Virus record (IMG/VR): IMGVR_UViG_3300028840_001210
Location: 1-59,757 of that record
Length of the DNA stretch: 59,757 nucleotides
Reading direction: 5' to 3' (one strand)
Origin: a virus
Lineage: Duplodnaviria; Caudoviricetes
Shown: piece by piece, positions 2,727 to 51,787 of the stretch
Layout of the letters: each line of letters starts with the position of its first letter
Position numbering within the stretch: position 1 is the first letter of the stretch
Made by a program: the position numbers and the translations under genes
The notes under the pieces: model-generated
What the model was told of the DNA's origin: nothing
The model's database searches: none
What the model saw: the letters and a program-made list of their open reading frames with translations, nothing else

Positions 2727-3145
2727 AGCATACAGATCCCATCACAGCTATACTATGGATCGCGCTCGCAGTGCAAGGCGAAGGCGCCGGCCTCTTCGCT
2801 GGTCTCGACTGCGCTGCAGCGATCGCCGAGACAGTGATCAACCAAGCGCACGATCTTGGCTGGTCGATCGAGCGCACAGTCGTCGAAAACTTCCATGGCT
2901 GGATCAACGTGCCAGATATGCAGCCAGCGCAGTGGGCGATCGATGTTTCCCGGGAAACATACGAGCGCTTTGTCGCCGGCAGCCTCGAGCACGACAAGTA
3001 CTTTGTGCTCAGCGACCATGACTTGCGAGATCACTGGCTGGATGGCTCGACGCGCGTGCTCTCTTTCCACCAAAGCGGCGATCACTTGTACTTTTTTTCG
3101 AGCTGGCCCGAGCGATTGCCAGATCGACCACAGCTCACACAGTAG
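2720..3145 (+). CDS. Hypothetical protein, weakly SleB/cell-wall-hydrolase-like
   Basis: ALAVQGE.AG...AIAETVINQ resembles the Hydrolase_2 N-terminus; contains a parS-like site. Confidence 0.4.
   Translation: MVEHTDPITAILWIALAVQGEGAGLFAGLDCAAAIAETVINQAHDLGWSIERTVVENFHGWINVPDMQPAQWAIDVSRETYERFVAGSLEHDKYFVLSDHDLRDHWLDGSTRVLSFHQSGDHLYFFSSWPERLPDRPQLTQ
2944..2959. promoter_or_regulatory. parS-like palindrome TGTTTCCCGGGAAACA (1 of 6)
   Basis: Perfect 16-bp palindrome, 14/16 identical to canonical parS TGTTTCACGTGAAACA. Confidence 0.8.
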
Positions 3146-3156
3146 GGGGACCATTC

Positions 3157-3744
3157 ATGCAGTATGCTCTGGTACGTCTTGAGAGAGTGCTGATCATTCG
3201 ATCGTCTGGCCAAGAGAAAGCATGGCGACCAGTGGTCGCACGCGACGCGCGCATGTGCTCTATGTGTGGTCATACCATCGCAAAGCGCAGCACAGTGATC
3301 CAGCCATACGACCAGACAGACAAAGATCGACTCTGTCTTCTCTGCGTCGATCTCTTGCGTCGCTTGCGTCTCATGTCTTTCGTCAAGTGTCCAAGCTGCG
3401 AAGAGCTGATCCCGTGGCGACCACTGGCCAGCCACGAGTACGCATGCCATAACTGCCATGGGATCGTCGACGCGACTGGCGAGCTGATCTCTGGCGAGCT
3501 GGCTGTCGAGCATTGCCCACTCTGCGCGCACACTGTATGGTACAGAGAGAGCGCGCCGCGTCGCATGTGCGATCACTGCTATTCTGTCTTCGATGTGACC
3601 ATGACAGAGTGCGAAGACCTCGACATGAACGCTCAAAACTTTGACATGACGCAGCGCAGAAACGCGCGCAAAGTCAGCCCTTTACACCCATGGCGCTCGT
3701 ATGGCACGAGCTTCGCAGTCGAGCAAGAAAGCGAGATCACATGA
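3157..3744 (+). CDS. Multi-zinc-finger protein
   Basis: Six CxxC pairs; AGGGGG SD. Confidence 0.65.
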   Translation: MQYALVRLERVLIIRSSGQEKAWRPVVARDARMCSMCGHTIAKRSTVIQPYDQTDKDRLCLLCVDLLRRLRLMSFVKCPSCEELIPWRPLASHEYACHNCHGIVDATGELISGELAVEHCPLCAHTVWYRESAPRRMCDHCYSVFDVTMTECEDLDMNAQNFDMTQRRNARKVSPLHPWRSYGTSFAVEQESEIT

Positions 3745-4232
3745 GCGACCAGATCACACTGGCGCTGGACGCCAGTACAAAGTGTGTCGGCTTTTCGCTC
3801 TGGTCTGGATATGACTATCTGTCTGGCTTTGAGCGCAAATATAAAGGCCAAGCGTACTTGCGTATGGATCGCATCGCGCGCGACGTGCTCGACTTGTGCC
3901 AAGAGCACCTTGTACAGCACGTCGCGATCGAAAAGCCTGTCTATGTCCAAGGTCATGGACACGACACGCACTTCGAGCTGGCATGCGCGTTTGGCGCGAT
4001 CGCGTCTCGCGTGGCTGGCGCTGGCTTGCACGTGTACGAGATCAATCCAAAGAGCGCGAAAGCTGCGCTCGTGTCTGGCAAGGCGACAAAAGCACAGATG
4101 ATCCAAGCTGCGCAGCTATACGTCGGAGCACGCATGGTCGTCGGCGAGCACCATGCCGACTCCATTGGCGTCTTTCTTGCTTGGTGGAACAGTCATGGCC
4201 ATCGCTTACAAGTAGAAAGCATGAGAGCATGA
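3741..4232 (+). CDS. ruvC: RuvC-like Holliday junction resolvase
   Basis: LALDAS..GFS, VAIEKP, K....GKATKAQM, HHADSIGV. Confidence 0.85.
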   Translation: MSDQITLALDASTKCVGFSLWSGYDYLSGFERKYKGQAYLRMDRIARDVLDLCQEHLVQHVAIEKPVYVQGHGHDTHFELACAFGAIASRVAGAGLHVYEINPKSAKAALVSGKATKAQMIQAAQLYVGARMVVGEHHADSIGVFLAWWNSHGHRLQVESMRA

Positions 4233-4543
4233 GCGATCGACCTGTTATCTTTGAGTTTTGGGAAGGCGACCAGCGCACGAGCCGCCACGAGTTTACATGG
4301 GGGGAGATCGAAGCGCTCGAAGTGATCTTGCGTCGAGCCGGGCCCGAGATGCGCCAGATCCTGGCCGGCTCGGACGTCGACAGAGCTGCGCTCGCTGGCA
4401 CGCCAGAACAGTGCGCGAAAGAACTAAACCGGATCAAGCCACAAGGCACTTTGTTTTTCAGCGCGCCAGAGATCAGAGTCTGGCGCACTATGGCCAGCAC
4501 GCCAGACAGACACGAAAGGAAAAGGGGACCATGCGAACAGTGA
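4229..4543 (+). CDS. Hypothetical protein
   Basis: ATGA-coupled to ruvC. Confidence 0.6.
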   Translation: MSDRPVIFEFWEGDQRTSRHEFTWGEIEALEVILRRAGPEMRQILAGSDVDRAALAGTPEQCAKELNRIKPQGTLFFSAPEIRVWRTMASTPDRHERKRGPCEQ

Positions 4544-5552: not shown

Positions 5553-5598
5553 ATTATACAAGAGCCAGTCGTCGTGTCAAGTGCGACGACTGGCTCTT
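5553..5598 (-). promoter_or_regulatory. Sigma70-type promoter with -35 in the loop of a 15-bp inverted repeat
   Basis: TTGACA 5580-5575, TATAAT 5558-5553; arms 5560-5574 and 5584-5598. Confidence 0.6.
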
Positions 5599-6702: not shown

Positions 6703-6803
6703 GAAAGATCTTGTCAAAAAGTCTTGACATTCTCTCGCGCCTGTGCTATAATGTGTCTGTTGGACCTGACCGCACGACCACACACATTATAGGAGAAAAC
6801 GAC
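6703..6803 (+). promoter_or_regulatory. Repeated early promoter/leader cassette, copy 1
   Basis: AAAGATCTT..GTCTTGACATTCTC-N5-CCTGTGCTATAATGTGTCTGTTGGACCTGACCGCACGACCACACACA; -35 at 6724, -10 at 6747. Confidence 0.9.
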
Positions 6804-10591: not shown

Positions 10592-11773
10592 CTATACCCC
10601 CGCTCCCGCAAGACCCATGCGCGCCAATTGCTGATCCAAGTGTGAAACCTTCTGGCCATCGACCTCGAGATCTCTAGGCGCTGAAAACTTGAGCGACTCT
10701 ATAAAGCCAGCGCGCACGTCGCTGCGCAGCTTGGCCGACGTCGCTGGTAAAGCTGTCCCGACCTGGATGTCGCCGAGAAAGACCCAAGAGTCTGGACGCA
10801 CGAGCCATGGCTCGACTCTCTGCTGCTGCAGCGTCGACCACTCTTCGTTCTCTGTGAGTGACGTTTTCAGCTCGATCGCGTTTGGCGCGAGCTGGTAGAC
10901 CAGTCGCCGGCCTTCGTACACTCCCAGAGTATAGCGTCTGTACTGCGAGTCGCCTTTGCTGGCTAGGTCTTTCAAGATCGTCCATGCGCGCTTGTCTTTG
11001 TTCTCGTACTGCGAGATCTGCGTCGTGTTCGCTGCGATGCGCGTATAGTCGCTGGAAAAGATCCCGTTAGGATCTGCAGCGAGCACGGCGACGATCTTGT
11101 CGTCGAGATCGATGTTGCCAGACGAAGCTGTCTGATTATAGATATAGGCCTCGAGCCATGCCCAGTAGCCAAGACAGTCGAGCGAGACTTGCGGCTCGCT
11201 TCCAGCTCGCAGCGTCGCGCGACGTCCGGACTCTGGCCATGCGTGCTCTACAAGCCAAGTGTTGGCGACCTGTAGCGCTTCTGTCGCGTTTGATCCCGAG
11301 ATACTCGCGACTTTTTGCCAGACGCCATGCTCGGCCTGTGAAAACGAGTTTTCGATCCATGCAGTCGTGTCGCGCTTTCCTACTGTTGGGGGACTGGTCG
11401 ACGTGTCGACTGTCGAGTACGCGACTTTGACTTTGTTCCCTATGCTCACCAAGGGACCGATCACGATCTTGGCTCTTCCCAGATTGATCGTCAATTTGTT
11501 GACAAAGCCTTCCCATACAGTCGACAAGCCTGGCGACATGACTTCGATGTGACGCCCGACGCCACGCGAGATCCAGTCGTTTGCTTCGCCGAGTCCAATG
11601 AAAGACGCGATCGACGCTGCGTAAAATCCCCCAGTTGCGCGCATCTGATGCGAGTAACTCGACAAGGTCTCTGTGATCGTCGAGACTTCGAGTCGCGACG
11701 CTGCGACCAGTGGATCGCTCACAGTGACAGAGAGCCCGGCCTGTGTAAAGAAAGATCCCAGATCTGTCGCCAT
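10592..11773 (-). CDS. Tail tip / baseplate hub (Tal-like) protein
   Basis: Second gene after the tape measure; VWEGFV motif. Confidence 0.6.
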   Translation of the reverse strand: MATDLGSFFTQAGLSVTVSDPLVAASRLEVSTITETLSSYSHQMRATGGFYAASIASFIGLGEANDWISRGVGRHIEVMSPGLSTVWEGFVNKLTINLGRAKIVIGPLVSIGNKVKVAYSTVDTSTSPPTVGKRDTTAWIENSFSQAEHGVWQKVASISGSNATEALQVANTWLVEHAWPESGRRATLRAGSEPQVSLDCLGYWAWLEAYIYNQTASSGNIDLDDKIVAVLAADPNGIFSSDYTRIAANTTQISQYENKDKRAWTILKDLASKGDSQYRRYTLGVYEGRRLVYQLAPNAIELKTSLTENEEWSTLQQQRVEPWLVRPDSWVFLGDIQVGTALPATSAKLRSDVRAGFIESLKFSAPRDLEVDGQKVSHLDQQLARMGLAGAGV

Positions 11774-11800: not shown

Positions 11801-11816
11801 TGTTTCCCGGGAAACA
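11801..11816. promoter_or_regulatory. parS-like palindrome (2 of 6), intergenic
   Basis: TGTTTCCCGGGAAACA. Confidence 0.8.
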
Positions 11817-11820: not shown

Positions 11821-14800
11821 TCATTGGTCGCCACGCAAAAACGAGTATCGCTGTATTGCCCACTGCTGGACGTCGCACGCGATCGAAGGGGGAGCGACAA
11901 AAGTGTCGCCATCGTCGTAGTGTCGCGCGAAAGCAAAGTACATGCGCTGGCGCTGATCTTGCTGCAGTATCGGACGTCCAGCGCTCTGCAGCGCCCATGT
12001 ACTGTCGATGTAGTCAGTAGCCGAGCCACGCAAGATCGCGCGCTTGCGCTTCGTGCGTCGCGTACCATCGACTTGGAGCAAGCGACGATACTGCTCTATA
12101 CCTCCCCAACCGAGCGCCGTTTTCTCGCTGTCTGCGTCTTCTACGTCTGCGCTCCATTCGTCGACCGGGAGCACGAGAAGATCGTACACGAAAAAGTTGC
12201 CTGGCGATCCAGTGTTAACGATCGTGACGTCCAGCTCTGTCTGCGCAGCCACTTCTGTCGAGAGCACGACGTCAGGCGCGCCGATCACGATCTCGCCCAG
12301 ATCGAGAAACTCGTAATCTTGCAAGTTTTCCGGATAGATGTTTTCTGTCTGCGTGGTCACTCCATTGGCGCGCCATCTGCATCGCAAGTAACACTCGCCG
12401 CCAGATCCATAGTCTTGGTACACGCGAGCATACATGTGGAAGCGCCCGAGCCAGTGACGCGCTTGCTCTCGATCGATCGAGTAAGTAATAGTGCCGCTTG
12501 ACGTCGCAGGCGCGTACCATGTAGTATTGCCAGCGCTCTTTGTGTCGTTCGTTGTCGTGCTCAGACCAAAGCCGATCCCGACCAGCGACCAGCCTGGCGG
12601 CAGTGTAGCACCTCCCAGATTGATCCACGCGGTAAAGTCTTCGCCACGCCAGAGAGAACGCAAGCCCATGAGCACGCGCGTCGCTTCGTGCTCTATGTTT
12701 GCATCAGTCGCATAGTCAGACGCACCCCCGAGACGCGTCTCGCTGAGCGCTGGTATGTTTCCCCCGATCTCGTTATGGCCGATCTCTGTCCATGGCCATT
12801 CTACTGCGTAGATCGGGCCATCGTTCCATGGGATCTGCAGTGGCGAGACCGCGCCCGGATTAAGATACAAGCGCACCCAAAGCGCTGTCACTCCGTTATG
12901 GGTATCTTTGACCCAGACGCCAGCGCCCTCGCCGCGCCAGTGTACAGAATTGCGGCCAAGCGTGTCGAGCGCATGACCTGTCATCGCACCATCTTGGTTT
13001 GTGTTGTCTTGCACTCGCGAAAAGTTTGTCCATCCTCCGACGCCATTGGACCGCGCCCAGGTGCCAGCGCTCGCGATCGCTGTCTGAGTGAGGTTAAACA
13101 CGAGCGAGTAGAAAGGCCCAAAGCTCGGCCCGACGTCTTCGATCCCAAAAAGTATATAAGAGCCACTACCAGCGACCAGCCTTTCGAGTAATGGGTAAGG
13201 GCCACTCAAGTTTGCCAAGTTGGGACCGTACACCCACGCGCCCCCATCCCATGTATAGCTATAGATGTGTGTGATCTGCGCTGGCGACCACCTGTTACCC
13301 ACAAAGACGCCCATGTCTTCGCAAAGTGGATCGAGTGTGATCGGCGCTCCAAGAGCTGGATCGCACGTCAGCGCGAAGACTGGATCGCAGTCGCTTCCCC
13401 ATGTACCGTTTTCGATTAAACCATGGTTCTTGTAGTAAGAATTGTCAAAAGCGACCTCGCCATGATCGTCAAAGATCGTCAAGAGTACAAGAGTCAGATA
13501 GTCCCGATCGTACAATTGCCACCATGGCAAGCATCGATCTGGGGGAGTAAAATTTGACGTCCATCTGATGGCTTTCGTGACTCGCACCCATGCTATGTCG
13601 CCGTCGAAAGTTGTCGTAGCATTTGCGCGATTCGCGATCGTAAGATCGACACCTACGTCAGTAGCGATCGCGCCGTTTCTCACTTGTGTATTGTTTGTCT
13701 GCTCGACGCCATCGATCCAAAGTCTCGGATTAGTGGAAGCTGCGTCGTCCCATGTGAACGCAACATGGTGCCATGCGCTGTCAGTAGTGAACGCGACAGT
13801 ACCAGACCATGCGCGACCGTTAGCAGTCGCACATTCAATAGTCGCCGCTAAACCCTCGACTGAACTGACATGAAAACGCCAGCCAACGTTGGTATTCCAT
13901 CCCTTTTGTATGATAGTCCCTGCATTGTTTTCGCCCCAGCCATTCGTTCTGATCCACGCATCGACTGTAAACGCAGCGTCATGTAGATCTTGCAAGTGAG
14001 TAGGATCGCCGTAATTGATCAGCGTGTCTTGACCGTCACAGACAACAAAACTGTTTTTCGTTCTCACATAAGCGATCTGTTCTGCGACGTCGCTGCAGCA
14101 CTCGCAGCCCCATGTCAAGTTGTCGATCGTGCCGTTGTTCGCATTCTCGCTCAGATCAGACACTTCGACGCCGAAACCTTCATGGATTCCGAGCCAAACA
14201 GTATTAGAGTCTTTCGTCGGAAGAGTGCAACGAGCCGGGATTGCGTCATTAAAATCAGTCGTGTATTTTACGACGTCAGAGATCATGACCCATCCCAGAT
14301 CAGCGTTTGCAGCCCTGTTTCCGTCTGAGCGTGCGAGCATGGTCAGATCGTCCCCGACGTCAGAGACGATCGCGCCGTTTCTGTTGGCGAGCACGATCCC
14401 AACGTTCAGACCGTCGACAAAAATAGTCGGCGCTTGGTAGCTCGCATCGTCCCAGCACACTGCGACATGGTGCCACTCGCCAAACGACATAGTAAAATTA
14501 GGTGCATAAGTTGCGCCATCCGTCACAGCACAGACGACCTCCGCGCGTACTTGCTGGGACACGCGCAGCGTGACATTCCAACCAGAGTTGTATAGATTGC
14601 CTTTTGAGATCAAGCATGAGTTGTTCGTTGCATGCTCCCATACGCGAACCCAAAACTCGCATGTAAACGCGTCGTCACCAAGATCCTGTAGCACTGCGTC
14701 GTCGAGTACGACAATACCTTGCCCCGGTTGTGCGTATGCAGAAACATAGCTAGGCGCGCATTGTGCGATGTTTCCTTGTAAGTGTTCGCAGTCGCATCTA

Positions 14801-24701: not shown

Positions 24702-26728
24702 GGCGACACTTGCGCAGTAGCGCCAGCGCTGTGTGTTTCCCGGGAAACATCGCCAGCCAGCTCTGCAGCGAAAGCGATCTCTGCATTGACATACTCGCGC
24801 AGCTTGCGCACAGTGCCGGCGCCTATCGCGTCGAGCTTGATCAGCTCTTCGTCAGTGGCTGCGAGCAAGTCGTCGAAAGTGAGCACGCCAGCCGCATGCA
24901 AGCTGTCGCGAGCTGCAGTCGTGACGCGCGAGATCGTCGACCAGTCAAACGGTACGATCGTCGCATCTGGCGCGTGCTCGGCCTGGCTGGTCGCTTCGTC
25001 GACCTGGTCGTCGACTGGCGCTTCCATCGCTGCGCGCAGCTCTGCGACTTGTGCGTCTTCGACTGGCTCTTCGACCACTGGCGCTGGCGCGATCTCGACG
25101 CGAGCAAACAAGTGCTTGCCTTTGTGCATGATCTCCAAAAAACCTGGCTTTTTCATGTCGCCAGTGCGCACGTCTCTGTTGTCGACGTTGCCATTAGGGC
25201 GAGACTTCCCAAACGAGTACGGCATGCGCGTCACTGGGCCATAAAAGACCTCTGACCCCCAGTTATCCCCTTGATACTGGATCAGCGTCATGCCATCGAC
25301 GCCCGGAACTGGCATACTGGCCAGTGTGACTGTCTCAGTTTGCGCAGCTCTCGACGTCCCTGGTATTCTGACCGGACCACCGCAACCCTTGCACATATTG
25401 ACCCCTTCTCGCATGTAGACACTTGGCCAGATGGCGGCGAGCTGGTCGAGAAAGCGCTCGCGCCACTTTGGCGTGGTATTGTGTATGCTTCTGTTCTGGC
25501 GCTCTCTTCTGTACAAGTAAAGCGCCTGTCTCACGTGCTCGCCAGACCAGCCAGCGAGCGCCAGCGCGACATTAAACTGCCAGTCTTCTCGGCCATAGCG
25601 CATGGACTCATGATACTGTCCAGCGTCGACCCATGCTTGCTTTGGAAAGACGATCCCGGCATGTACATGGTTCTTACAGAGAAGCGCTTTCGCGTCCCAG
25701 TCTTGGAGTCGCATCTCTTTTTGACGTCGACCCCCGGTCACTATTCGACAGTTATCGTATGCGAAAGTCTTGTCTTTGCCCTCGAGCGCAGCGAGCATGA
25801 CTTCGAGTCGCGTTTCTTCCATCATGTCATCAGCGCACAAGATCGAGATATACTTTCCAAAGGAAGCATTGATCCCAGTGTTGTTGGCGGCTGGCGTGCC
25901 TCCATTCTCTGCGCGTCTGATGTAGCGCACAGCTCGCCAGTCGTCGGCAAGAGAGAGCGCGACCTCTTGCGTGTTGTCTGTACTGCAGTCGTCGACGATC
26001 ACGATCTCAAAGTCTTGTATGGTCTGGCCAGCCATCTGGCCGAGTACGGTTTTGCCACCAATGAGAGAAGCGACAGCCTCGGCCAAGTATCGCCCGTAAT
26101 TGTAGCATGTGACGATCACGCTCACACGTGGCGGCGTGCGTATGAACAGAGTACGCTTTTCTGGCTGCGCTTTGAGCGTCGCCGCAATGCTCGATCCAAA
26201 AGGCTCGCGCCCTCGCACGTGTCCCAACCACTCTGGCTGGAAGATTGGCCGAGCTGCAAAGCCAGCCCGACACGCTCGGAGCTGCCACTCTGCAGTAGCG
26301 CCCCATAGCGGATAGTTTACAGCGTCGAGACCTCCGACAGCGTCGAGAGCGTCGCGACGCATGTACATGAAAGTACCTTGTACATAGCCTTTCGGCCATG
26401 CTGGATGGCCAAAGACGCCATCGCCGAAGACGCCAGAGCGACGCGCCATGTGGTCGACGATGTCAGCGGGAAAGCCAGAAGGAAAGAAAACATCTTGATT
26501 TAGCACCAAAACGTCACGAGCGCCAGCCAGCTCGATCCCCTTGTTGACAGCGCCTGAAAAGTAGCCACGCTGATCGAGTCTGTGCGTCGTGACGTTGTCT
26601 CGCTCGCTCGTGTACGCTCTGTCGCTCACATCGTCGACGACGATCACGTCGATGCTTGCAGGTATGTCGTCGAGCAAGCGCTCGATCGTCTTGTGACCAT
26701 TCCGGAAAGGCACGACCACGCAGTACAT
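24698..26728 (-). CDS. Tandem GT2 glycosyltransferase fused to a CxxC / helix-hairpin-helix region
   Basis: VVVPFRN, VVDDVS, LNQD; VSVIVTCYN, IVDDCSTD, LCADD, EDW; C-terminal LDAIGAGT HhH. Confidence 0.85.
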   Translation of the reverse strand: MYCVVVPFRNGHKTIERLLDDIPASIDVIVVDDVSDRAYTSERDNVTTHRLDQRGYFSGAVNKGIELAGARDVLVLNQDVFFPSGFPADIVDHMARRSGVFGDGVFGHPAWPKGYVQGTFMYMRRDALDAVGGLDAVNYPLWGATAEWQLRACRAGFAARPIFQPEWLGHVRGREPFGSSIAATLKAQPEKRTLFIRTPPRVSVIVTCYNYGRYLAEAVASLIGGKTVLGQMAGQTIQDFEIVIVDDCSTDNTQEVALSLADDWRAVRYIRRAENGGTPAANNTGINASFGKYISILCADDMMEETRLEVMLAALEGKDKTFAYDNCRIVTGGRRQKEMRLQDWDAKALLCKNHVHAGIVFPKQAWVDAGQYHESMRYGREDWQFNVALALAGWSGEHVRQALYLYRRERQNRSIHNTTPKWRERFLDQLAAIWPSVYMREGVNMCKGCGGPVRIPGTSRAAQTETVTLASMPVPGVDGMTLIQYQGDNWGSEVFYGPVTRMPYSFGKSRPNGNVDNRDVRTGDMKKPGFLEIMHKGKHLFARVEIAPAPVVEEPVEDAQVAELRAAMEAPVDDQVDEATSQAEHAPDATIVPFDWSTISRVTTAARDSLHAAGVLTFDDLLAATDEELIKLDAIGAGTVRKLREYVNAEIAFAAELAGDVSRETHSAGATAQVSP
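24734..24749. promoter_or_regulatory. parS-like palindrome (3 of 6)
   Basis: TGTTTCCCGGGAAACA. Confidence 0.8.
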
Positions 26729-32602: not shown

Positions 32603-32605
32603 GTG

Positions 32606-33333: not shown

Positions 33334-33991
33334 CTAATACTTGACGACAGCGTGCGCTTGTCGTGCGAGACTGTTGTCGCTTCCATCCATGCCAAGAAAC
33401 CAGAGCAAGCGCTTGATCTCGCGCAGCGAGTCAGCCTTTCCAGTCCGGACGCGCTCAAAGTGCAAAGTATAGACTGGCCAGTCGACGCCAACCAGCGAGC
33501 GCTGGATCTCGCGCCTATACCTGACGCAGAGACGTCGCCACGACTCTGCGCTCTTGCCATTGCGCTGCATGAGCGACGCGACGACGTCGTCTTCTTTTCG
33601 CACGCACCAAACGACGCGCACGTCTGGTTTATTCCATAGGTCAAAGTAATCGTTTTGCACATCAAAGATCTGAGCGTATGCTCGTAAAAAGAGAGACGTT
33701 CTAGGATCCTTCCAGCCCCAACATGATCCCATGTGCGACTCGACGCGCGAGCACACAAGATTGTACAGATCTTGCGCGATCCCTTTGTCATTCATGACAC
33801 GCCAGATCGCTGGCCAGTTTGGTGGACGATACCAGATCCCGCCAGCGCTTCGCAGCGCGTGCTTGTGCAATTCGAGAAAGTCTCGATCTTCGTGATGCGC
33901 TTGGACGTGCGTCTCGCCAGAGAGCAAGTCTTCGCATGTGAGCTGTCATGCTCGTGCCAGATCTGTGCATACCCACGACGATCACGATCAT
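33334..33991 (-). pseudogene. Sulfotransferase (family 3-like), frameshifted near 33935
   Basis: VVGMHRSGTS lies in one frame; HHED..F, WGWKDPRT and VVASL lie in another. Confidence 0.75.
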
Positions 33992-34809: not shown

Positions 34810-35644
34810 GGCCAGCACTCTCGACAAAGTCGATCGCTTCTTGCACGCGCTCGCCGCATGTGGCGTCTGGCATTGTTTCCCGGGAAACATTCATGCGCGC
34901 TTCGATCTCTTGCTCTCTTGTTGGCTTGCATAGAGCGAAGCGCATGGACACTGGATCATATCCCATGCTTTCCAGCTCGGCAGGCGACCAGATCGTACTG
35001 GGAAGTGCGCGCAGTGGTCGCACGCTGCGCGAGCGCATGTCGACGTACTCTCGCACAGGGAAGCGCATGACTGGCGTCTTGTTTTTGGCCATCGCTGCAG
35101 CGTAGCAAACGCGTATCGCTGGCGCGATGTGATCAAGAAAGATCTCGCCGAGCTGGTTATACATGGATCTGTTCCATAGCGCGCACTCTGGATCAAGGTA
35201 TGGTATTCTTGGGTGTATCTCTGCGCGCTGGCCGTTTTTGCCAAACGCGTCGACCTTGTACACTCTGCCCACGCCAAGGGCCCTGGCCGACTCTGTCAGC
35301 TCGTGAAACATGTTTTCGACCAGCATGCCACGCTTGACCACAACATGGCTGGCCAGCGTCAGTATAAAAGGCGTGCTCGCGATCGCGAAGGCTCGCGCGA
35401 GCGCTGGACCTGACCCCACGTCACTTGGGATCTTGTGTGTGTAGATCTTTTCGTTATGCTGCGCGAGACGCGCAGCCCACTGGCCGACGTCTGATCCAGC
35501 CTTCGAGCCATTGTCGATCAGTATGATGCTCATGTCTGGATAGAAACGAGTCAAGCTGTCGAGTGCTCTCTCGGCCAGCGCGCGCGTCTTGTTGATCGCG
35601 ATCGCGCACGTCGTTACAAGCTGTACCCCCTTTGTCATGTTCAC
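34802..35644 (-). CDS. Divergent GT2-like glycosyltransferase
   Basis: IILIDNGS, G.GPALARA; the DxD position reads LASH. Confidence 0.65.
   Translation of the reverse strand: MNMTKGVQLVTTCAIAINKTRALAERALDSLTRFYPDMSIILIDNGSKAGSDVGQWAARLAQHNEKIYTHKIPSDVGSGPALARAFAIASTPFILTLASHVVVKRGMLVENMFHELTESARALGVGRVYKVDAFGKNGQRAEIHPRIPYLDPECALWNRSMYNQLGEIFLDHIAPAIRVCYAAAMAKNKTPVMRFPVREYVDMRSRSVRPLRALPSTIWSPAELESMGYDPVSMRFALCKPTREQEIEARMNVSRETMPDATCGERVQEAIDFVESAGHE
34874..34889. promoter_or_regulatory. parS-like palindrome (4 of 6)
   Basis: TGTTTCCCGGGAAACA. Confidence 0.8.
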
Positions 35645-39428: not shown

Positions 39429-40865
39429 TTACGACTCGCCAGCGATCTGGCTGGCCAGCTTTGCGCCAGCGCTCCCACCATGACGCAAGAGCGATCGAGT
39501 GCTGGCTCGCTCGATCGCTTCTCTCTTTATGTAGGTATGAAGGTATCGTGTCGGCAGTGTCGACCACGTGTACACGCCAAACAGGCGATCTATGTCGAGA
39601 TACTTTTCGAGCGTCGCGCGTCTGACGTTACCACTCGACGACCAGAAAGCGCGAGACGTCGAGAGCTGGCGAAAGAGCGAAGCGTCGCGCAGCTCGCCAC
39701 GCACAGCCAAGAGCCAGAGAGTGATCGTCGACAGTCCTTCTGGACCAAACGCGCTGGACACTGTCACAGTGTCACTATTGAACAGGCGACGCTTGAACGT
39801 GCCAAGCGCGCAGTGCGCAGCCTGCAGGCGAGTGATCGCGCTCTCTCTGTAGTCTTCGTACCTGGCTGGCCATACAGCGGCTGGCGTACATGGCATGGGT
39901 TTGAAAGGTGTATGTGTGATGTCTATGCGAGTACTCGCGTCATGCATGGGATCGCCTTTGTACTCGACGAAAGAGTCAAAAACAGACTCCCAAGTCGAGC
40001 GCATCTCGTGCCAGTCGTCGAGCGTCTCTGTCGGGTAGCCAATGATATTCATGACTCTGATTTTATACAGTGGAGCTGTGCGGCGAAGAGTACCAGCGAA
40101 GAGAGCGACCAGCATGTCACGTGAGATCGGTTTGTTGACCATACGTCGCAAGCGCTCCGAGAGTCCATCGCAGCCGATCAGCATCGAAGAGCCTGGCCAA
40201 GAGTCTGGACGATCGAGATCTAGCTCAAAGATCGTCGACTCTTCTGCAGACGCGACTGTCGCAGTGCGCGAGCTTGCAAACTTTTGCGCGCCGCCCATGT
40301 TGCGTCGAGTCCACGAGTACTGGCAAAACAGACACTTGCGATCGCAGCCTATCGCGATCTCTCTGTATGGCTTGCCATTGGCGAGCTGGTACGTGTACGG
40401 GTATGGTCGCTCGGCCTGTCTGTACTGGTACTGGCCATCTGGATCAAAGTCGTGCGAGTAGCAGATAGCTGGATCGTCGAGCTGGTCGCCAGCCGCGATC
40501 GCTTCGACCAGTGGCACGATCAGATCTTCGCCACGACCAAAGACAAAGACGTCGCCATACTCCAAGAAAGGGAGCACATTGTCGACGCCCGGACCACCGA
40601 TTATGGTTTTGTAGTCGCCTTTGGGCCATGAGACGCGCTCGGCGACAAAGCTGTACCAGTCATACGCAGAGACGATCGACACGAGCACGACGTCAAAGTC
40701 GGCGACTGTTGGCGCGCTGCAGTACCCACAGACATGGCCAGCTCTCTGCAGCGCGTCGCGTATCATCTCTAGGCCTGGCCAGACGCGCACGTCGTAAGAC
40801 TCGGTCTTGTACGCGCTCTTGGCATAGCTATCTTGCACGTATGCAGCGATCTGCAGACTTTTCAT
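39429..40865 (-). CDS. Radical SAM enzyme with B12-binding-like N-terminus
   Basis: IIGGPG, GRGE, GCDRKCLFCQY (CxxxCxxC), DGLSERLR..VNKPI, IIGYPTET, PFKPMPCTP. Confidence 0.85.
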   Translation of the reverse strand: MKSLQIAAYVQDSYAKSAYKTESYDVRVWPGLEMIRDALQRAGHVCGYCSAPTVADFDVVLVSIVSAYDWYSFVAERVSWPKGDYKTIIGGPGVDNVLPFLEYGDVFVFGRGEDLIVPLVEAIAAGDQLDDPAICYSHDFDPDGQYQYRQAERPYPYTYQLANGKPYREIAIGCDRKCLFCQYSWTRRNMGGAQKFASSRTATVASAEESTIFELDLDRPDSWPGSSMLIGCDGLSERLRRMVNKPISRDMLVALFAGTLRRTAPLYKIRVMNIIGYPTETLDDWHEMRSTWESVFDSFVEYKGDPMHDASTRIDITHTPFKPMPCTPAAVWPARYEDYRESAITRLQAAHCALGTFKRRLFNSDTVTVSSAFGPEGLSTITLWLLAVRGELRDASLFRQLSTSRAFWSSSGNVRRATLEKYLDIDRLFGVYTWSTLPTRYLHTYIKREAIERASTRSLLRHGGSAGAKLASQIAGES

Positions 40866-41443
40866 GCGTCCACTCGAAAGGAAAAGCCGCACTTGGGGCA
40901 GTGGTACGTGCTCGACTCTGCGTCGCCGGCCTCGGCGCTCGCGTCTTCGCCCCCGAGATCCACTTCGACTGGCTGGATCTCGACTTGGATCTCTTGGATC
41001 TCGACTGGCGTCCAGAACGGCACGAAGTCGATCCCACCTTGCATGTCGGCGAGAAGTCGCTCGCCATCCAGATCATAATTGACCTCTGACAAGCGATTGT
41101 CGACGTAGGCCAGCGTGCGGCCCTCTGGCGTCTCTATGTCGAGATCGTCGCGCTTGGTCGCCACCAAGAGCTGGCCTTCTGTCTCGATCAAAACGAGCTG
41201 CGAGATCCCTGCAGCCTTGCACTGTGCGAGCGTCTTGTTACCGCCGATCGTCTTGAGATTCTTGTCGAGCAAGATCCCACGACCAGCGCCAAAGCGCTCG
41301 ATCGACTCGGCGAGCATCGCGTTACCGCGTGGCGTGCCTTTGTTGGCATTGTGCGAGTCTGGTATCGCTTCGTCAATGTCGACGATACGCACGCGCACAC
41401 CTGGCGCGACTTCGTGTACTGTCCCTGGCAAAGTGTCAGACAT
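40862..41443 (-). CDS. ParB/Srx N-terminal domain protein with C-terminal zinc ribbon
   Basis: N.N, L..SI..FG..R.I, IGGNKT, YVDNRLSE, CPKCG. Confidence 0.8.
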   Translation of the reverse strand: MSDTLPGTVHEVAPGVRVRIVDIDEAIPDSHNANKGTPRGNAMLAESIERFGAGRGILLDKNLKTIGGNKTLAQCKAAGISQLVLIETEGQLLVATKRDDLDIETPEGRTLAYVDNRLSEVNYDLDGERLLADMQGGIDFVPFWTPVEIQEIQVEIQPVEVDLGGEDASAEAGDAESSTYHCPKCGFSFRVDA

Positions 41444-41457
41444 GGTATACCCCCTAT

Positions 41458-41537
41458 GAAAGAAAGGCGCGACGCGATGACCAGTCGCGAACGCGCCCAA
41501 AGTGGGAAGATCGGAGAAACGATACTTCGCCACACAC
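41458..41537 (-). ncRNA. Putative multi-target antisense sRNA / terminated leader of the packaging operon
   Basis: Promoter at 41572-41544; 5' GUGUGUGG and UCGUUUCUCC complement early-gene leader boxes; GGCGCG..CGCGCC plus UUUCUUUC terminator. Confidence 0.65.
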
Positions 41538-41543
41538 AGATCC

Positions 41544-41572
41544 ATTATAGCACGGCGCTGTCACTTCGTCAA
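41544..41572 (-). promoter_or_regulatory. Leftward promoter
   Basis: TTGACG-17-TATAAT with TG; shares CTTGACGA..CCGTGCTATAAT with the promoter at 29992-30021. Confidence 0.8.
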
Positions 41573-41603
41573 GGGCCAGACGCCAGAAAAGCAAAACTCG
41601 ATC

Positions 41604-41703
41604 GAAAGATCTTTGCAAAATGTCTTGACATTCTCGCGAGCCTGTGCTATAATGTGTCTGTTGGACCTGACCGCACGACCACACACAGAGACGGAGAAAC
41701 CAC
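41604..41703 (+). promoter_or_regulatory. Early promoter/leader cassette, copy 2
   Basis: -35 at 41625, -10 at 41648; identical downstream block. Confidence 0.9.
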
Positions 41704-42758: not shown

Positions 42759-42861
42759 GAAAGATCTTTGCAAAAAGTCTTGACATTCTCTCGCGCCTGT
42801 GCTATAATGTGTCTGTTGGACCTGACCGCACGACCACACACACAGCACTTGGAGAAACGAC
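42759..42861 (+). promoter_or_regulatory. Early promoter/leader cassette, copy 3
   Basis: -35 at 42780, -10 at 42803. Confidence 0.9.
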
Positions 42862-44443: not shown

Positions 44444-44459
44444 TGTTTCCCGGGAAACA
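44444..44459. promoter_or_regulatory. parS-like palindrome (5 of 6)
   Basis: TGTTTCCCGGGAAACA, 23 bp upstream of a -35 box. Confidence 0.8.
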
Positions 44460-44467: not shown

Positions 44468-44560
44468 ATCTGGTAAAATGTCTTGACATTCTCTCGCACC
44501 TGTGCTATAATGTGTCTGTTGGACCTGACCGCACGACCACACACACAAGGAGATCGAGCA
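44468..44560 (+). promoter_or_regulatory. Early promoter/leader cassette, copy 4
   Basis: -35 at 44483, -10 at 44506. Confidence 0.9.
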
Positions 44561-45113: not shown

Positions 45114-45215
45114 AAAGATCTTCACAAAAAGTCTTGACATTCTCGCCAGCCTGTGCTATAATGTGTCTGTTGGACCTGACCGCACGACCACACACACAAT
45201 ACTTGGAGAAACGAC
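45114..45215 (+). promoter_or_regulatory. Early promoter/leader cassette, copy 5
   Basis: -35 at 45134, -10 at 45157. Confidence 0.9.
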
Positions 45216-47919: not shown

Positions 47920-48408
47920 CTAGTGTATGACTTCTATGTCTGGCGCTGGCTGTGGATCGTCGATCGTGTATGGCATGCGACCGAGATCGATCTCTTGCGA
48001 GCCGCCAGACTCGCGACCAGTGATCAGGCGCTGCGCGCCATAGATGCGCACGTCGCTGGCCTGGATGCCGGCAGTATAGAGCGAGTGCGCGATCTTGTCG
48101 AGCACGCGATCCATGCCGCTTTCGACCTTGCCCACTTGGACAGATGCGAAGCGATAGCCGAGCCACATGGCGACGCCAGCGCACACTGGGATCGCAGTGC
48201 TGGCCAGCATCGCCCACGCGATCGCGACGCCCTTGCTCTGTATGGCGAGCCAGCTATACCAGACCAAGTACAGCGAGATCGCCAGCGTCGCAAGTAGCGC
48301 GACTGCGAGCCCGATCCCGACCACGCCGAGCACGTCGAGCGCTTGCTTGATCTTGCTCGGCTGTACTGGCTGTGGACCTTCGACGCTCGTGTATGATACT
48401 CTCTTCAT
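47920..48408 (-). CDS. Membrane protein downstream of the FtsK-like gene (Spd-like by position)
   Basis: Two TM helices; ATGA-coupled to the ATPase. Confidence 0.6.
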   Translation of the reverse strand: MKRVSYTSVEGPQPVQPSKIKQALDVLGVVGIGLAVALLATLAISLYLVWYSWLAIQSKGVAIAWAMLASTAIPVCAGVAMWLGYRFASVQVGKVESGMDRVLDKIAHSLYTAGIQASDVRIYGAQRLITGRESGGSQEIDLGRMPYTIDDPQPAPDIEVIH

Positions 48409-49832
48409 GCTTCGTTCCTTTCTTGACTGTCTGTCTGTCTACCAAAAGCGCGCGCGTCTTCGTCGCCAGCTCGGCCTGTCTGGCCAGCTCTGTGCGTCTC
48501 TAGCCAGACAGACAGCTCTGCGCTGCCCTCGAGCTGCGACCAGACGTCACGACCAAGAGCCAAGAGCCAGCGCGCTCGCGACGCGCCTGGCTTGCGCTCG
48601 CTGTCCAGTCGCTGGACCATTGCCGGCCTTCCATCGCCAGCGATCGCTGCGCGCATGGTCGCCTGCAATTCGTCCACTGTCGCTGGCTGTCGCCGACTTG
48701 GTCGCTGTGGTACGTCTTGGCCGACGTCTTCGAGCTGGACCTCTGGCCAAGCATCGAAGAGCCAGCGCTCTATGTCGCGCTGCGCGACTTGTGCCATGAG
48801 CTTCGCTTCGTCGAGTATGGCGACCTGTACGCGATGGACAGCGCCGGGACTGACTGTGTACGCATCGCCAGCGCCCAAGAGACGATCAGCTCTTGGAGTC
48901 GACGACCCCACAGCCACGCGCGACGCGTCGAGATCGTCGACTCGCAGCGCCAGCTTGCCCACCAAGCACCGACGCGTCGAAGCGTCGCCGAAAGCGTCGA
49001 GCGCCGGGTGTTGTGTGGCACAAACGAGATGGACGCGAGCCGCTCGGCCTTCTCTGGCGATCTTGGCCATCAGACCAGCGATAGTACGATCGTTTGTCAG
49101 CTCTTGGAACTCATCAAAGAGCACGACCAAGGGATCGCACGCCAGAGCTGGCTTTTCATGGTGCTCGTATCGCTCGCGCATAGTCTTCGCAGCAAAAGCC
49201 AGAGCGCTGATCACTTGCTCGCGAGACGTCGCCACTGGCCCGACCACACCGGCCAGACGCTGGCACGAGCGCAGCGAGTCGCCATACTTGCCATCGATCA
49301 GCACGAGCCTGGCTCGCTCTTTCTCTGTCGCGTGGCGTGCGAGCTGGTAAGCAATAGAGCGCATGGCGATCGTCTTGCCAGATCCCGGCGTGCCAGAGAT
49401 CAGCACGTGAGGGATCGCGTCGCAGAGCTGCATGGCGATCGTCTGGCCGTATTCGTTCATGCCCACGACAAAGACGTCTGGTCGTAGCGGGTATGGCGCG
49501 AGATCTCCAAGTGCGACAGAAGTCATGGCCAGCTCGCTCGGCCATGCCGCTTCCACGCGCACATGGCGCGACTGCATAAAGACAGAAGGATCGCCAGCAA
49601 ACGACCACGGCACAAACTGACGCAAGAGCGCGCTGTCGTGCTTGCGCAGCGCCTGCAGCGTGCGACCAGCGTACATGCCAGCGTCGAGCAAGAGAGCGCC
49701 AGCTCTAGGCCCGCATACAGCGCGCAAGTCTCGAAGCTGGAAAGCATCGCCGAAAGCGCCACGACCAGCCGCACTGTACAGCGCCTGACCCCACTGTCGC
49801 AAGTAGTCAGATCTGATCTGTCGCGTGTCCAT
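48405..49832 (-). CDS. FtsK/SpoIIIE (TraB-like) DNA translocase ATPase
   Basis: PHVLISGTPGSGKT, LIDGK, VVLFDEFQEL, GRAARVHLVCATQHP, LLGAGD. Confidence 0.9.
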   Translation of the reverse strand: MDTRQIRSDYLRQWGQALYSAAGRGAFGDAFQLRDLRAVCGPRAGALLLDAGMYAGRTLQALRKHDSALLRQFVPWSFAGDPSVFMQSRHVRVEAAWPSELAMTSVALGDLAPYPLRPDVFVVGMNEYGQTIAMQLCDAIPHVLISGTPGSGKTIAMRSIAYQLARHATEKERARLVLIDGKYGDSLRSCQRLAGVVGPVATSREQVISALAFAAKTMRERYEHHEKPALACDPLVVLFDEFQELTNDRTIAGLMAKIAREGRAARVHLVCATQHPALDAFGDASTRRCLVGKLALRVDDLDASRVAVGSSTPRADRLLGAGDAYTVSPGAVHRVQVAILDEAKLMAQVAQRDIERWLFDAWPEVQLEDVGQDVPQRPSRRQPATVDELQATMRAAIAGDGRPAMVQRLDSERKPGASRARWLLALGRDVWSQLEGSAELSVWLETHRAGQTGRAGDEDARAFGRQTDSQERNEA

Positions 49833-49983
49833 CGCTGGCCCTTTCCACAAGACGCGCTTGGCCTTCTACCACAGTCAGATCGTACTTTTTGACGATCATG
49901 TTTTTGAGCGCTTTTGTGTACGCTGGCAAGCAAGCCAGAAAGCCAAGCACGAAACCAAAAGCAAAAGCCCAAAGACCAGTCAT
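49807..49983 (-). CDS. Small single-TM protein (paralogue B)
   Basis: AFGFVLGF...YDLT...GQ. Confidence 0.6.
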   Translation of the reverse strand: MTGLWAFAFGFVLGFLACLPAYTKALKNMIVKKYDLTVVEGQARLVERASDGHATDQI

Positions 49984-50153: not shown

Positions 50154-50157
50154 GTGT

Positions 50158-50475
50158 CTATCCCCCTATAGTTTGCATAGCTTCGAGTATGTCGTCGTCG
50201 ATCACGACTTCGATGGCTGGAACGTCACCGGGCCCTGACACCTCGAGCGGCGTGCTAAACATGTCCCCAAGATACTCGGCGAGACGCTCGGCCAGCTCGC
50301 GCAGCGCTGGATCGTCGAGTATGCACTCGCGCGCGTCGCGCTCTTGCGCGGCTTTGTCGAGCGTCTCTCGGATCCTTGTCGATCGCTCGTTTCGTGGCAA
50401 GCTGGCCAGCCACGCAGCGAGCGACGGGTACTCTTCCGGACAGTACGAAAAGGTCACTCTGGCGATCTTGCGCAT
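50158..50475 (-). CDS. ParR-like adaptor / DNA-binding protein
   Basis: RVTFS...L..WL..LP..ERS..IRE.L and an acidic tail; in the ParM operon. Confidence 0.6.
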   Translation of the reverse strand: MRKIARVTFSYCPEEYPSLAAWLASLPRNERSTRIRETLDKAAQERDARECILDDPALRELAERLAEYLGDMFSTPLEVSGPGDVPAIEVVIDDDILEAMQTIGG

Positions 50476-50699
50476 GTCTCGCTCTCTTCTGTCCAGCCTG
50501 GCTGGCCAGCTTGCCACTCGCGACGATCCAGCTTTTTCTGGCACTCTGGACAAGGATCGTCTGGCGCTGGTATCCAGTCGAGATCCGTGTCGACACTGTC
50601 ATCGATGTAAGTATCGGCAGATCCACAGTAGATACACTCTTGCGCGCCAGTGTCTGGCCAGCACTCGCCGCACACATTGCAGACTCTGATCTCTTCCAT
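50454..50699 (-). CDS. Small zinc-binding protein
   Basis: Three CxxC pairs. Confidence 0.55.
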   Translation of the reverse strand: MEEIRVCNVCGECWPDTGAQECIYCGSADTYIDDSVDTDLDWIPAPDDPCPECQKKLDRREWQAGQPGWTEESETCARSPE

Positions 50700-50740
50700 G
50701 TTCACACTCCGTAACATGTCTGGCGCTCTTTGCTTCTCAC

Positions 50741-51787
50741 CTAGTAAGAAGACTGGCGCGACAAAAAAAGGCCATACTTGAGAAAGCCACGCACATTGGC
50801 GAGCTGTGGATCTGGCACTGTCTCGGCGTGCTGGTATCGCTCGGCCAGAGTGCCGGCGACCATGGCTTGCGCGCCCCCACAGAGAAAAACACGATCCAGA
50901 TCAGCGCCTTCTCCCCAGTACGACGCGCAGAAAGCGACCACAGCTTCGCCGAAAGTCTCGCGCGCAGCGTTGATCGCTGGCGTAAGGTCGACCTGGTCGC
51001 CATAGTAGAACACATGGCCAGCGACGATGGCGCGCGAGATCTCAAAGTCTGACAGCTCTAGGCCTGGACAGTTATGTCGCAGCCACTGACGCACCAAGCG
51101 AGCAACGTACAAGCCGCCACGCTTCATGCTGCCACGTCTGTCTGGCAAGTCTTGCAGGCGCTGCACTGTGAGTACTTGCGTCGTACCTCCCCCGACGTCG
51201 AGCACGCCAAAGCGACCACGCGCGAGATCTTGATCTCGCATCGTGCCACGATCGTCGAGCACGCGATCCAGCACGCAGCCGAAAGGCTGGGGGACCACTC
51301 GCACGACGCGTACTTCCAGCTTTTGCCACGAGCCGCGATCGCCGAGCTTGATCGAGTGCGAGCCATTCAGTACAGCGCGCACGTGCTCGATCGCGCCATC
51401 ATTCTGGATCGTCGAGATGGGAAGACCGACGACCACGTCGAGATCGACTCGCGTGGCGTGCGATACCTGGCCGAGCGCAGCCAGTGCCAAGATGCGCCAG
51501 ATCTGCGACTCGATCCAGCGCTCTGACTCTTCATTGATCAAGAGACCAGAGCGATCGATCGCGCTCTGGCCGACAGCATACTCTGTATCATCGCCCTGGA
51601 AGCGCACGAGCATGCTGGCGCTCGCTCTATGGACGCTCATGAGCGACTCGACGTACTTGCACGCGACAGACTCAAAAAGAACAGTCTGCAGCTCGCCACG
51701 CTGCGCTTGGTTTCCCGGGAAACATTGCCGAGAGCCAGAGACAGCGACAGCGGTTTTGTAGTACCCAACGTCAAGACCTACGATCAT
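50741..51787 (-). CDS. parM: ParM/StbA-family actin-like ATPase
   Basis: GLDVGYYKT, VVGLP, VVPQP, VLDVGGGTT, FLCGGA, ANVRGF. Confidence 0.9.
   Translation of the reverse strand: MIVGLDVGYYKTAVAVSGSRQCFPGNQAQRGELQTVLFESVACKYVESLMSVHRASASMLVRFQGDDTEYAVGQSAIDRSGLLINEESERWIESQIWRILALAALGQVSHATRVDLDVVVGLPISTIQNDGAIEHVRAVLNGSHSIKLGDRGSWQKLEVRVVRVVPQPFGCVLDRVLDDRGTMRDQDLARGRFGVLDVGGGTTQVLTVQRLQDLPDRRGSMKRGGLYVARLVRQWLRHNCPGLELSDFEISRAIVAGHVFYYGDQVDLTPAINAARETFGEAVVAFCASYWGEGADLDRVFLCGGAQAMVAGTLAERYQHAETVPDPQLANVRGFLKYGLFLSRQSSY
51709..51724. promoter_or_regulatory. parS-like palindrome (6 of 6), inside the parM 5' end
   Basis: GGTTTCCCGGGAAACA (15/16). Confidence 0.75.

Follow-up and report, generated by a model that had tools for sequence, protein, structure and literature searches.

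Evenly spaced parS-like palindromes and a long ParB protein in a 59.6-kb phage genome

Six parS-like palindromes and a long ParB protein

The window analysed here is the whole of virus record IMGVR_UViG_3300028840_001210 (59,757 nt; Duplodnaviria, Caudoviricetes), a phage sequence in which six copies of a palindrome resembling parS, the DNA site of ParB, are spread around the entire map and which encodes a long protein of the ParB family. ParB proteins are CTP-driven clamps that load at parS, and most work has dealt with one site cluster near the origin. The map was taken as a circle with 59,613 bp of unique sequence because the window carries a direct terminal repeat of 144 bp (1..144, identical to 59614-59757).

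The 16-bp palindrome TGTTTCCCGGGAAACA occurs five times without mismatch in the window (positions 2944, 11801, 24734, 34874 and 44444), and a sixth copy at 51709, GGTTTCCCGGGAAACA, deviates from it at the first base, outside the 14-bp core. These are the six palindromes announced by the original prediction, which had been made from the letters of this DNA. Beyond them, the window contains no match with up to two mismatches; none of 100 dinucleotide shuffles of the window matched the 16-mer, the window read backwards gave no match, and a repeat scan returned the same six sites. Six of the eight CCCGGG hexamers present in the genome are located within the sites. No conservation of the flanks was detected across the six sites outside the 16-mer, except for a T that directly follows it in five of them. 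The palindrome is identical to canonical parS at 14 of 16 bases, with the same TGTTTC/GAAACA arms and a CCGG centre instead of ACGT, so that its description as parS-like is justified; its half-site agrees with parS at 7 of 8 positions, as would be expected for about 4 in 10,000 random palindromes (arithmetic estimate). All six are thus candidate parS sites, being 16-bp palindromes with arms of the parS type. They are not clustered near an origin or a parAB operon: the six are spread evenly, and the nearest lies 1.65 kb from parB.

According to our own gene calls, four of the sites are located inside coding sequences, as had been claimed, and two (11801 and 44444) are intergenic. The translated site reads (D/N)VSRET in three genes and CFPGNQ in one. 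Site 1 (2944..2959, TGTTTCCCGGGAAACA) encodes the DVSRET at residues 75-80, in the middle of an open reading frame (ORF) of 141 amino acids (aa; 2720-3145, +), and lies shortly after an MT-A70 methylase gene. Site 3 (24734..24749, exact) encodes DVSRET at residues 716-721, in the C-terminal tail of a 732-aa family-2 glycosyltransferase, and site 4 (34874..34889, exact) encodes NVSRET at residues 252-257 of a 280-aa glycosyltransferase (34802-35644, -), where it overlaps a possible start of the next ORF. Site 6 (51709..51724, GGTTTCCCGGGAAACA) provides the CFPGNQ, codons 22-27 of an actin-like gene. The intergenic site 2 (11801..11816, exact) is flanked by two minus-strand genes: a lectin-domain gene (11821-16029, -; 1402 aa), whose stop precedes it by 5 bp, and a 393-aa gene (10592-11773, -), which starts 28 bp beyond it. 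The intergenic site 5 (44444..44459, exact) stops 24 bp short of the -35 hexamer of a promoter (44483-44511, +).

Around the circle, the sites are separated by 8857, 12933, 10140, 9570, 7265 and 10848 bp. For six random points on such a circle, the probability of a minimal gap of at least 7265 bp is 0.0014-0.0015, and that of a variance or coefficient of variation as low as observed is 0.0005-0.0006. The gap sizes and the evenness given in the original prediction therefore hold, with a p value of about 0.001.

The long ParB gene (53378..54940, +) encodes 520 aa from its ATG, in a frame that is open from 53231. The protein is composed of a ParB domain at the N-terminus (motifs GHRRLRA and ENxxR), an HTH_ParB domain, four cysteines and a long tail, and matches TIGR00180 with 88.5 bits (cut-off 58.45) and HTH_ParB (PF17762) with 70.2 bits (cut-off 22.6). 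Among solved structures it is closest to Spo0J, ParB and Noc (6sdk, 1vz0, 4umk and 6t1f), its GHRRLRA aligns with the GERRFRA of Spo0J, and its recognition helices align without gaps to 6sdk, 1vz0, 6t1f and 7ol9. Both hallmarks of the ParB/Spo0J family, the N-terminal CTPase-fold domain and the ParB-type helix-turn-helix (HTH), are thus present, and the Spo0J-like nature proposed for this protein is well founded. We used two alignments, A1, which comprises the window ParB and five full-length viral long ParBs, and A2. The cysteines (272, 275, 287 and 292) are invariant in both, and A2 also has invariant G97, H98, R100, A103, E136, N137 and R140 and, in the N-terminal domain, invariant GHxR..A, ENxxR and NPxQxR motifs. 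In a predicted structure, residues ~15-250 have predicted local distance difference test (pLDDT) values of 86-95. With its N-terminal domain, HTH and four cysteines, the protein belongs to a type of long Cys4 ParB of ~450-700 aa; all four cysteines are kept in 111 of the best 150 library representatives in a profile search of 1.8 billion representatives, and by this signature the long Cys4 ParBs are a large family. No (L/F/I)G(K/R)G(L/F/I) ParA-binding motif is present in the ParB translation, and a six-frame search of the window with PF13614 was negative, in line with the earlier remark that no ParA is visible.

The specificity residues of the phage ParB are R173, L179, N184 and R201 (Caulobacter numbering), as read from ungapped HMMER alignments to 6t1f and to Noc (7ol9) that keep the conserved anchor residues G170, S172, N178 and R204 in line. 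With its bases numbered as by Jalal et al. (2020), the 16-mer is a hybrid, with G1 as in parS and C6 as in NBS, the site of Noc. In the available text of that study (PMC7383237), R173 hydrogen-bonds guanine 1, cytosine 6 is preferred by variants with R201, and the RTAR, RKAR and RTKR variants switched to a site mixing features of parS and NBS. The combination of R173 and R201 in the phage protein therefore fits G1 and C6 of the motif, which would be a natural case of the parS/NBS hybrid preferred by laboratory R173/R201 variants and, as such, a field test of that recognition code. Covariation was seen in a few cases, two relatives found by protein similarity: a QTRR ParB is accompanied by two copies of ATTTCCGCGGAAAT (locus L259) and an RKRR ParB by two copies of GTTTGCGCGCAAAC, one of them ~50 bp before the gene (L208).

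Recurrence with related ParB proteins in other phages and metagenomes

Close relatives of the phage were not found by Megablast of 20 kb against phage records, nor did a single-protein locus search in viral contigs reveal any; a word-indexed protein search returned solely the phage's own ParB and ordinary chromosomal ParBs (30-38% identity). Scanning of viral contigs detected the 16-mer in 19 viral records and its 14-mer core in at least 128 viral stretches. We retained 11 other records, namely the contigs listed more than once for the 14-mer core plus G016 and G019, each with 3-13 copies of the core when one mismatch is allowed. An HTH_ParB protein is encoded by six of these records (five above cut-off), in open frames of 511-706 aa, the exception being a 242-aa frame cut by the contig end in G024. 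The five full-length proteins have the four invariant cysteines in common with the window ParB, at 23-29% identity. Sites are located within parB in G021 (three) and G026 (two) and just upstream of it in G016 and G019 (one each). These genomes share with the window the ParB, an FtsK-like protein, a weak tape-measure match and almost nothing else. ParA is encoded beside parB in G021 and G026 and an integrase in G016, G021 and G026, so the lifestyle and the partners of these ParBs vary. ALP_N and ThiF matches were each obtained for one of the 12 records, the window itself, which argues that the actin-like gene and the ubiquitin-like cassette described below are not what the motif travels with.

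Other multi-site records present different arrangements. G023 (L171-L174), a complete phage genome of 72,427 bp, carries thirteen sites of the CGTTTCCCGGGAAACG type, including three close pairs, and no detectable ParB. The related phages G027 and G028 (L179-L184; ~70% GC), in which the core is embedded in the 20-bp palindrome CGCGTTTCCCGGGAAACGCG, encode WhiB, an FtsK-like gene and zinc-finger DNA-binding proteins, again with no ParB; WhiB suggests actinobacterial hosts. A Pfam analysis of 125 ORFs of G023 and G027 detected no ParB.

The spacing test was run on all 12 records, and the sites are more even than expected by chance (p < 0.01) in three: the window, G016 and G019. The p value is 0.002 for G016 (0.08 with exact sites alone) and 0.006 for G019, where it is derived from three sites, two of them with one mismatch. 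Both genomes encode a long ParB of the window's kind. G021 and G026 have a cluster of sites at parB and outliers ~10 kb off, and G023 becomes even only once its three close pairs are merged, a post hoc step. The conservation of spacing in other phages, proposed earlier as a check, was thus recovered for G016 and G019 and not for the remaining nine records. The tiling is real in the window and recurs elsewhere, yet it is no rule; its presence in the window and in at least two unrelated phage genomes with a long ParB points to selection for coverage of the whole replicon.

Relatives with this ParB that lack the motif had been named as evidence that would speak against its role. The exact core is indeed absent from relatives of 25-41% identity, being found in none of eight records (one match with two mismatches) and in none of 61 metagenome loci, which surround relatives of 27-41% identity and add up to 500,495 bp, some of them from the same or near-identical contigs. 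For this reason we searched for the arms alone, GTTTC-N4-GAAAC, and here the relatives do carry variants of the motif: the pattern occurs 31 times in 17 of the 61 loci, at least twice in seven of them, and three composition-matched control patterns gave no occurrence in the same loci. Several sites are present in L262 (396, 5368, 10148 and 14054) and in L253 (722, 4187, 10907 and 18690). Genes for JAB and ThiF proteins (41-42% identical) are located downstream of parB in L253, L257 and L262, the last also with an E2 gene. An FtsK-like gene is located upstream of parB in L253 and L257, and homologues of the FtsK-like ATPase of the window are found near long parB genes in G021 and in the metagenome loci L253, L257 and L258/L259/L265. 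Ten Chloroflexota loci (146 kb) with E2-JAB-ThiF genes and no ParB match contain no GTTTC-N4-GAAAC, which argues that the sites go with ParB and not with the ubiquitin-like genes.

Two further elements may be mentioned. Acidovorax phage Aval (OP131589.1; L194, L195) encodes a 953-aa ParB and carries three dispersed copies of the palindrome TGCACACGTGTGCA (7663, 13370 and 20626; spacing 5.7 and 7.3 kb), which differs from that of the window. On an 81,860-bp metagenome contig (L258, L259, L260, L265), the ParB locus and its two ATTTCCGCGGAAAT sites repeat every ~24.9 kb, which looks like a concatemer or the repeated assembly of a small element.

Neighbouring genes and candidate functions of the sites

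Besides the dispersed sites of unrelated phages with long ParBs and the occurrence of the 16-mer in Chloroflexota, the original prediction missed the long form of the ParB with its four cysteines, a gene for an actin-like ATPase and a cassette resembling the PRTRC systems. The actin-like gene (50741..51787, -) matches ALP_N with 81.1 bits, together with MreB-like_C. Its best matches include ParM PRK13917 (6e-27) and PRTRC_D (3e-24; 85.6 bits, cut-off 214.8), both NCBIfam matches being below cut-off, and a control search gave a match below cut-off in Corynebacterium glutamicum. We recognised no ParR- or AlpA-like adaptor; the 131-aa neighbour of the gene has no family match, and a search for repeats of a ParR-type centromere near the gene revealed nothing convincing and no upstream array. 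The actin-like gene is in an operon with a Cro/CI-type HTH gene (52258-52605), which faces away from the parB-cassette operon across a pair of divergent promoters (52605-52577, -, 11/12; 52647-52676, +, 12/12).

Downstream of parB, the PRTRC-like cassette (54973..58922, +) starts with a Prok_Ub/PRTRC_C-like gene (54973-55647, +; NCBIfam PRTRC C, 24.4 bits, cut-off 45.95), followed by two ORFs of 87 and 311 aa (+) without family match, an E2 (Prok-E2_D)/PRTRC_B-like gene (56966-57385, +; PRTRC B, 51.4, cut-off 131.45), a JAB/PRTRC_A-like peptidase gene (57388-58056, +; PRTRC A, 47.9, cut-off 101.8) and a ThiF E1 gene (57618-58922, +; PRTRC ThiF, 143.9 bits, cut-off 144.75). The PRTRC ParB model matches the phage ParB with 31.8 bits (cut-off 278.6). 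PRTRC models are the best or leading NCBIfam match for six genes of the window, all below cut-off, and PRTRC E and F were not detected in the window. Defence-system models (PADLOC) gave weak E1-E2, BilC and BilD matches alone on the cassette. From these similarities, the window ParB is the head of a putative, diverged PRTRC-type ubiquitin-like cassette.

The remaining genes are briefly described here. An FtsK/SpoIIIE-like ATPase is encoded at 48405..49850 (-), on the same side of the divergent promoters at 52.6 kb as the actin-like gene. Three genes in a row at 1378-4232 (+) encode a Cas4/RecE-like exonuclease, the MT-A70 DNA methyltransferase (1947-2726) and a RuvC-like resolvase. The 1402-aa product of the lectin-domain gene next to site 2 has three lectin domains of the concanavalin/laminin-G type and probably binds a receptor as a component of the tail; its gene adjoins the tape-measure gene (16029-19016). 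A block (24698-35644, -) within the long late region of the minus strand has at least three family-2 glycosyltransferase genes and a sulfotransferase gene, beside a DUF1360 ORF; such cargo is unusual within a structural module. Neither PHROGs nor Pfam identified a terminase, portal or capsid family in the genome. A second, short ParB-like protein (40862-41545, -; phrog_620) adjoins the presumed packaging genes; it lacks an HTH, has a C-terminal CxxC, and is of the nuclease-type ParB kind and not likely to be the site reader. Eleven promoters of the form TTGACA-16/18-TATAAT were found in the window at 11-12 of 12 bases, ten of them with an extended TG (5553-5580, 6724-6752, 29992-30021, 41544-41653, 42780-42808, 44483-44511 (+, 12/12), 45134-45162, 52577-52676 and 58949-58977); two divergent pairs are present, at 41.5 and 52.6 kb, and the whole set looks like a map of the phage transcription units.

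We consider it probable, though well short of assured, that the six palindromes are parS-type loading sites for the long ParB of the phage and serve to cover the whole genome for its maintenance and organisation as a free replicon. The main candidate binder is this long Cys4 ParB (53378-54940), a dimer of which would bind each 16-mer through its HTH, close as a CTP-switch clamp and move onto the flanking DNA. With one site every 7-13 kb, the loaded protein could reach all 59.6 kb and not one centromere region. Its likeliest use would be to maintain and organise the phage DNA as a free replicon, since a six-frame search of the window found neither tyrosine integrase nor serine recombinase nor ParA, and the phage does carry a ParM-like actin gene. 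The motor could be the actin-like protein or a Par system of the host. It seems improbable to us that the ParB clamps at the tiled sites also carry or recruit the PRTRC ubiquitin-like machinery (ubiquitin-like protein, E2, JAB and ThiF E1) along the element, so that nucleoid or defence proteins of the host, or phage proteins, would be tagged or untagged on phage DNA in a DNA-guided manner. If this were true, it would give the cassette a target and a mechanism, in a bacterial analogue of chromatin-directed ubiquitylation. The sites are the first candidate DNA target for a cassette of the PRTRC type.

Several observations weigh against the proposal that the phage ParB loads at these sites. The sequences establish the sites with their number and even spacing, the family and residue pattern of the ParB, and the recurrence of dispersed sites with related ParBs; that the protein binds them, spreads with CTP, covers the whole genome and maintains it is inferred. 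The phage ParB lacks the permissive lysine at positions 179/184 that is important in the available text of Jalal et al. (PMC7383237), and the CCCGGG core also accompanies ParBs with T201 (G021, G026) or A201 (G016, G024, G025); the rule linking R201 to C6 is not general. The protein matched PF17762 alone, not the C-terminal dimerisation domain PF23552 listed for chromosomal ParB matches, and the C-terminal half of the predicted structure has pLDDT values below 50, except for a long last helix. No site is located beside parB in the window, unlike in many relatives, where sites lie ~50 bp before the gene. Nine of the 12 records have no significant spacing, and the evenness of G016 and G019 hinges on one-mismatch sites. 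Five of the 11 other multi-site records (G020, G022, G023, G027 and G028) have no ParB of the family in alignment A1; complete genomes account for three of these, among them the one with 13 sites, and the site reader in such records can be something else, perhaps a host protein. Finally, we know of no precedent for a ParB paired with an actin-like motor.

That the palindromes copy a parS variant of the host, allowing host ParB (and through it ParA or SMC) to act on phage DNA, is possible but in our view rather doubtful; as variants of this idea, the phage could soak up host ParB, or phage ParB could bind the host's own sites. It overlaps with loading by the phage ParB and does not exclude it. 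In a scan of prokaryote genomes, one per species, for the exact 16-mer, Chloroflexota accounted for 28 of the 80 rows listed and, among those listed with two or three clustered copies, for 10 of 11. Five such Chloroflexota genomes have 2-4 copies each, and canonical parS within one mismatch is present in one of the five. All three GTTTC-N4-GAAAC matches in the 5 Mb of G168 (contigs of 3.99 and 1.0 Mb) are the exact 16-mer, two of them paired on one contig and the third alone on the second; the 16-mer appears to be the sole parS-like palindrome in this subgroup. A doublet is kept in six genomes, with an NYN-domain gene on one side and a methyltransferase operon on the other; the loci concerned (L401, L403, L404, L405, L424 and L425) have a doublet or triplet from the NYN-domain gene to a SAM (S-adenosylmethionine)-methyltransferase gene, with a Dam-type DNA methyltransferase beyond in two. 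This conserved element may serve the lineage as a centromere, or it may be an operator, in which case the regulator could be unrelated. In G038 a parA-parB operon, encoding a ParB with R173 and R201, follows a single copy at a distance of 115 bp, but none of three other singleton loci examined has a parAB2 nearby. Weaker pointers are a long Cys4 ParB of the same genome, 40% identical to that of the phage, and E2-JAB-ThiF homologues in 15 of 401 genomes sampled from the candidate class; the lack of a ParA in the phage would also suit the use of host proteins. On the other hand, the motif is present in just five of these 401 genomes, the 487-aa protein beside the packaging region has no relative in any of them, and copying of host sites leaves unexplained why the phage keeps a ParB of its own. 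We therefore place the phage host within this Chloroflexota lineage only tentatively. The suggestion that the CCGG core is orthogonal to the host is not supported: the identical 16-mer appears to be the parS-like element of the Chloroflexota subgroup, at 2-4 copies per genome, so the core is probably not orthogonal. Should the phage infect this subgroup, its sites may be read by the ParB of the host, and the phage would carry twice the copies found in a 5-Mb host genome; the shared 16-mer raises the prospect of cross-talk between the segregation systems of phage and host.

A role in transcription, in which ParB would slide from the sites to promoters and silence or tune phage genes during lysogeny or early infection and not act in segregation, seems unlikely to us. 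It would follow the ParB-family CTPase clamp KorB, which, in the available text of PMC11790492, slides from distal OB operators to promoters up to 1.5 kb off; it would also agree with the 12/12 consensus promoter 24 bp beyond site 5, with the position of the parB operon opposite a Cro/CI-type repressor gene, and with Acidovorax phage Aval, where the gene of the long ParB is part of an early-type operon and has cII and an HTH gene nearby. The integrases of G016, G021 and G026 point in the same direction, since with them partition cannot be the sole use of such ParBs. However, just one of the six sites has a near-consensus promoter, out of 11, within 40 bp (at least one such case would arise by chance with a probability of ~0.13, by estimate), four are inside genes, the gaps of 7-13 kb far exceed the 1.5 kb of KorB, and no KorA-like clamp-locking partner was identified, so that the window does not fit the pattern of a KorB-type regulator. 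A 16-bp palindrome could serve any dimeric HTH protein as a binding site, and the window does encode other candidates, the Cro/CI-type HTH protein (52258-52605), a 187-aa HTH protein (38856-39419) and the short ParB-like protein (40862-41545). That the sites are operators of one of these is nevertheless very unlikely, given the agreement of the half-site with parS, the recurrence of the sites with long ParBs in genomes otherwise nearly unlike the window, the missing HTH match of the short ParB-like protein and site positions that are not linked to promoters. Still more remote, in our view, are the readings that the sites arose as by-products of restriction-modification of the SmaI/XmaI type (CCCGGG), that they act as hairpin terminators or that they belong to a small mobile repeat. 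The core does contain CCCGGG, with most of the genomic copies, and the phage encodes an MT-A70 methylase, but the conserved unit is 14-16 bp and not 6, no T-run follows the sites, the flanks lack the conservation expected of a mobile repeat, and four copies are translated. Moreover, the relatives keep the GTTTC/GAAAC arms and vary the centre, the opposite of what a CCCGGG-centred function would require.

Comparison with known systems

The phage system resembles chromosomal ParB (Spo0J)/parS in its ParB N-terminal domain and HTH_ParB, in the TGTTTC/GAAACA arms of its sites and in R173. It differs from it by the CCGG centre in place of ACGT, by sites that are tiled and not clustered near the origin, by the Cys4 region and long tail that replace the usual C-terminal domain, and by the absence of ParA; no motif of the LG(K/R)GL type, which in the available text of a 2025 survey (PMC12704722) is the ParA-binding motif at the ParB N-terminus, is visible in its N-terminus.

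Noc of Bacillus subtilis is likewise a ParB paralogue without ParA, with scattered sites that have a CCCGGG centre and with R201. The NBS sites number some 70. They have A1 and are read by a protein with Q173, K179 and K184, whereas the phage has G1 and R173, L179 and N184. The Noc model TIGR04285 gives 85.6 with the phage ParB (cut-off 315), the residue pattern of the Noc/NBS pair is absent, and no N-terminal amphipathic helix is evident in the phage protein.

Plasmid RK2 has 12 OB sites for KorB. From the available text of PMC11790492, KorB/OB shares with the phage a ParB-family CTPase clamp, a mobile element of ~60 kb, dispersed palindromes and action at a distance. KorB differs in working with IncC (a ParA) and KorA and in having sites tied to promoters, as against one of six here, and the OB operators are unrelated in sequence to the phage sites. 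The sites of phage N15 are said to lie far apart and to affect late genes, and we know of no report of even tiling in N15. As far as the available text of PMC7205306 goes, N15 is a temperate phage maintained as a low-copy plasmid with four separate palindromes, the inverted repeats IR1-4. It differs by having SopA (a ParA) and a protelomerase, its SopB being of the F-plasmid type; the window has separate palindromes too, and neither integrase or resolvase nor ParA was found in it, as judged from the nucleotide sequence.

The order ParB...C...B-A-ThiF of the window resembles the E-C-F-B-A-ThiF of the PRTRC cassette (ParB-Related, ThiF-Related Cassette; TIGR03734-03742) of Ralstonia phage Dina, where it forms an early-type operon. 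The window differs in its scores below the curated cut-offs, in the unrecognised E and F and in an actin-like gene located in the opposite operon. In the available text of PMC13366799 and PMC3318190, such cassettes occur on phages, plasmids and islands and their function is unstudied. The window has in common with the ParMRC and AlpC/AlpA systems an actin-fold ATPase on a mobile element, without a recognised ParR- or AlpA-like adaptor or an upstream repeat array. AlpC of CGP3 is an example of a prophage-encoded actin.

The survey mentioned above reports many orphan ParBs on mobile elements and prophages, and its available text describes no dispersed phage ParB sites. In the literature available to us we found neither tiled parS-like sites on phage genomes nor DNA sites for PRTRC ParBs, which is not proof of their absence. 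Dispersed sites for proteins of the ParB family are already known from Noc/NBS, KorB/OB and the IR1-4 of N15, and because these three systems also have dispersed sites, the tiling of the phage genome is best seen as a variant of a known theme.

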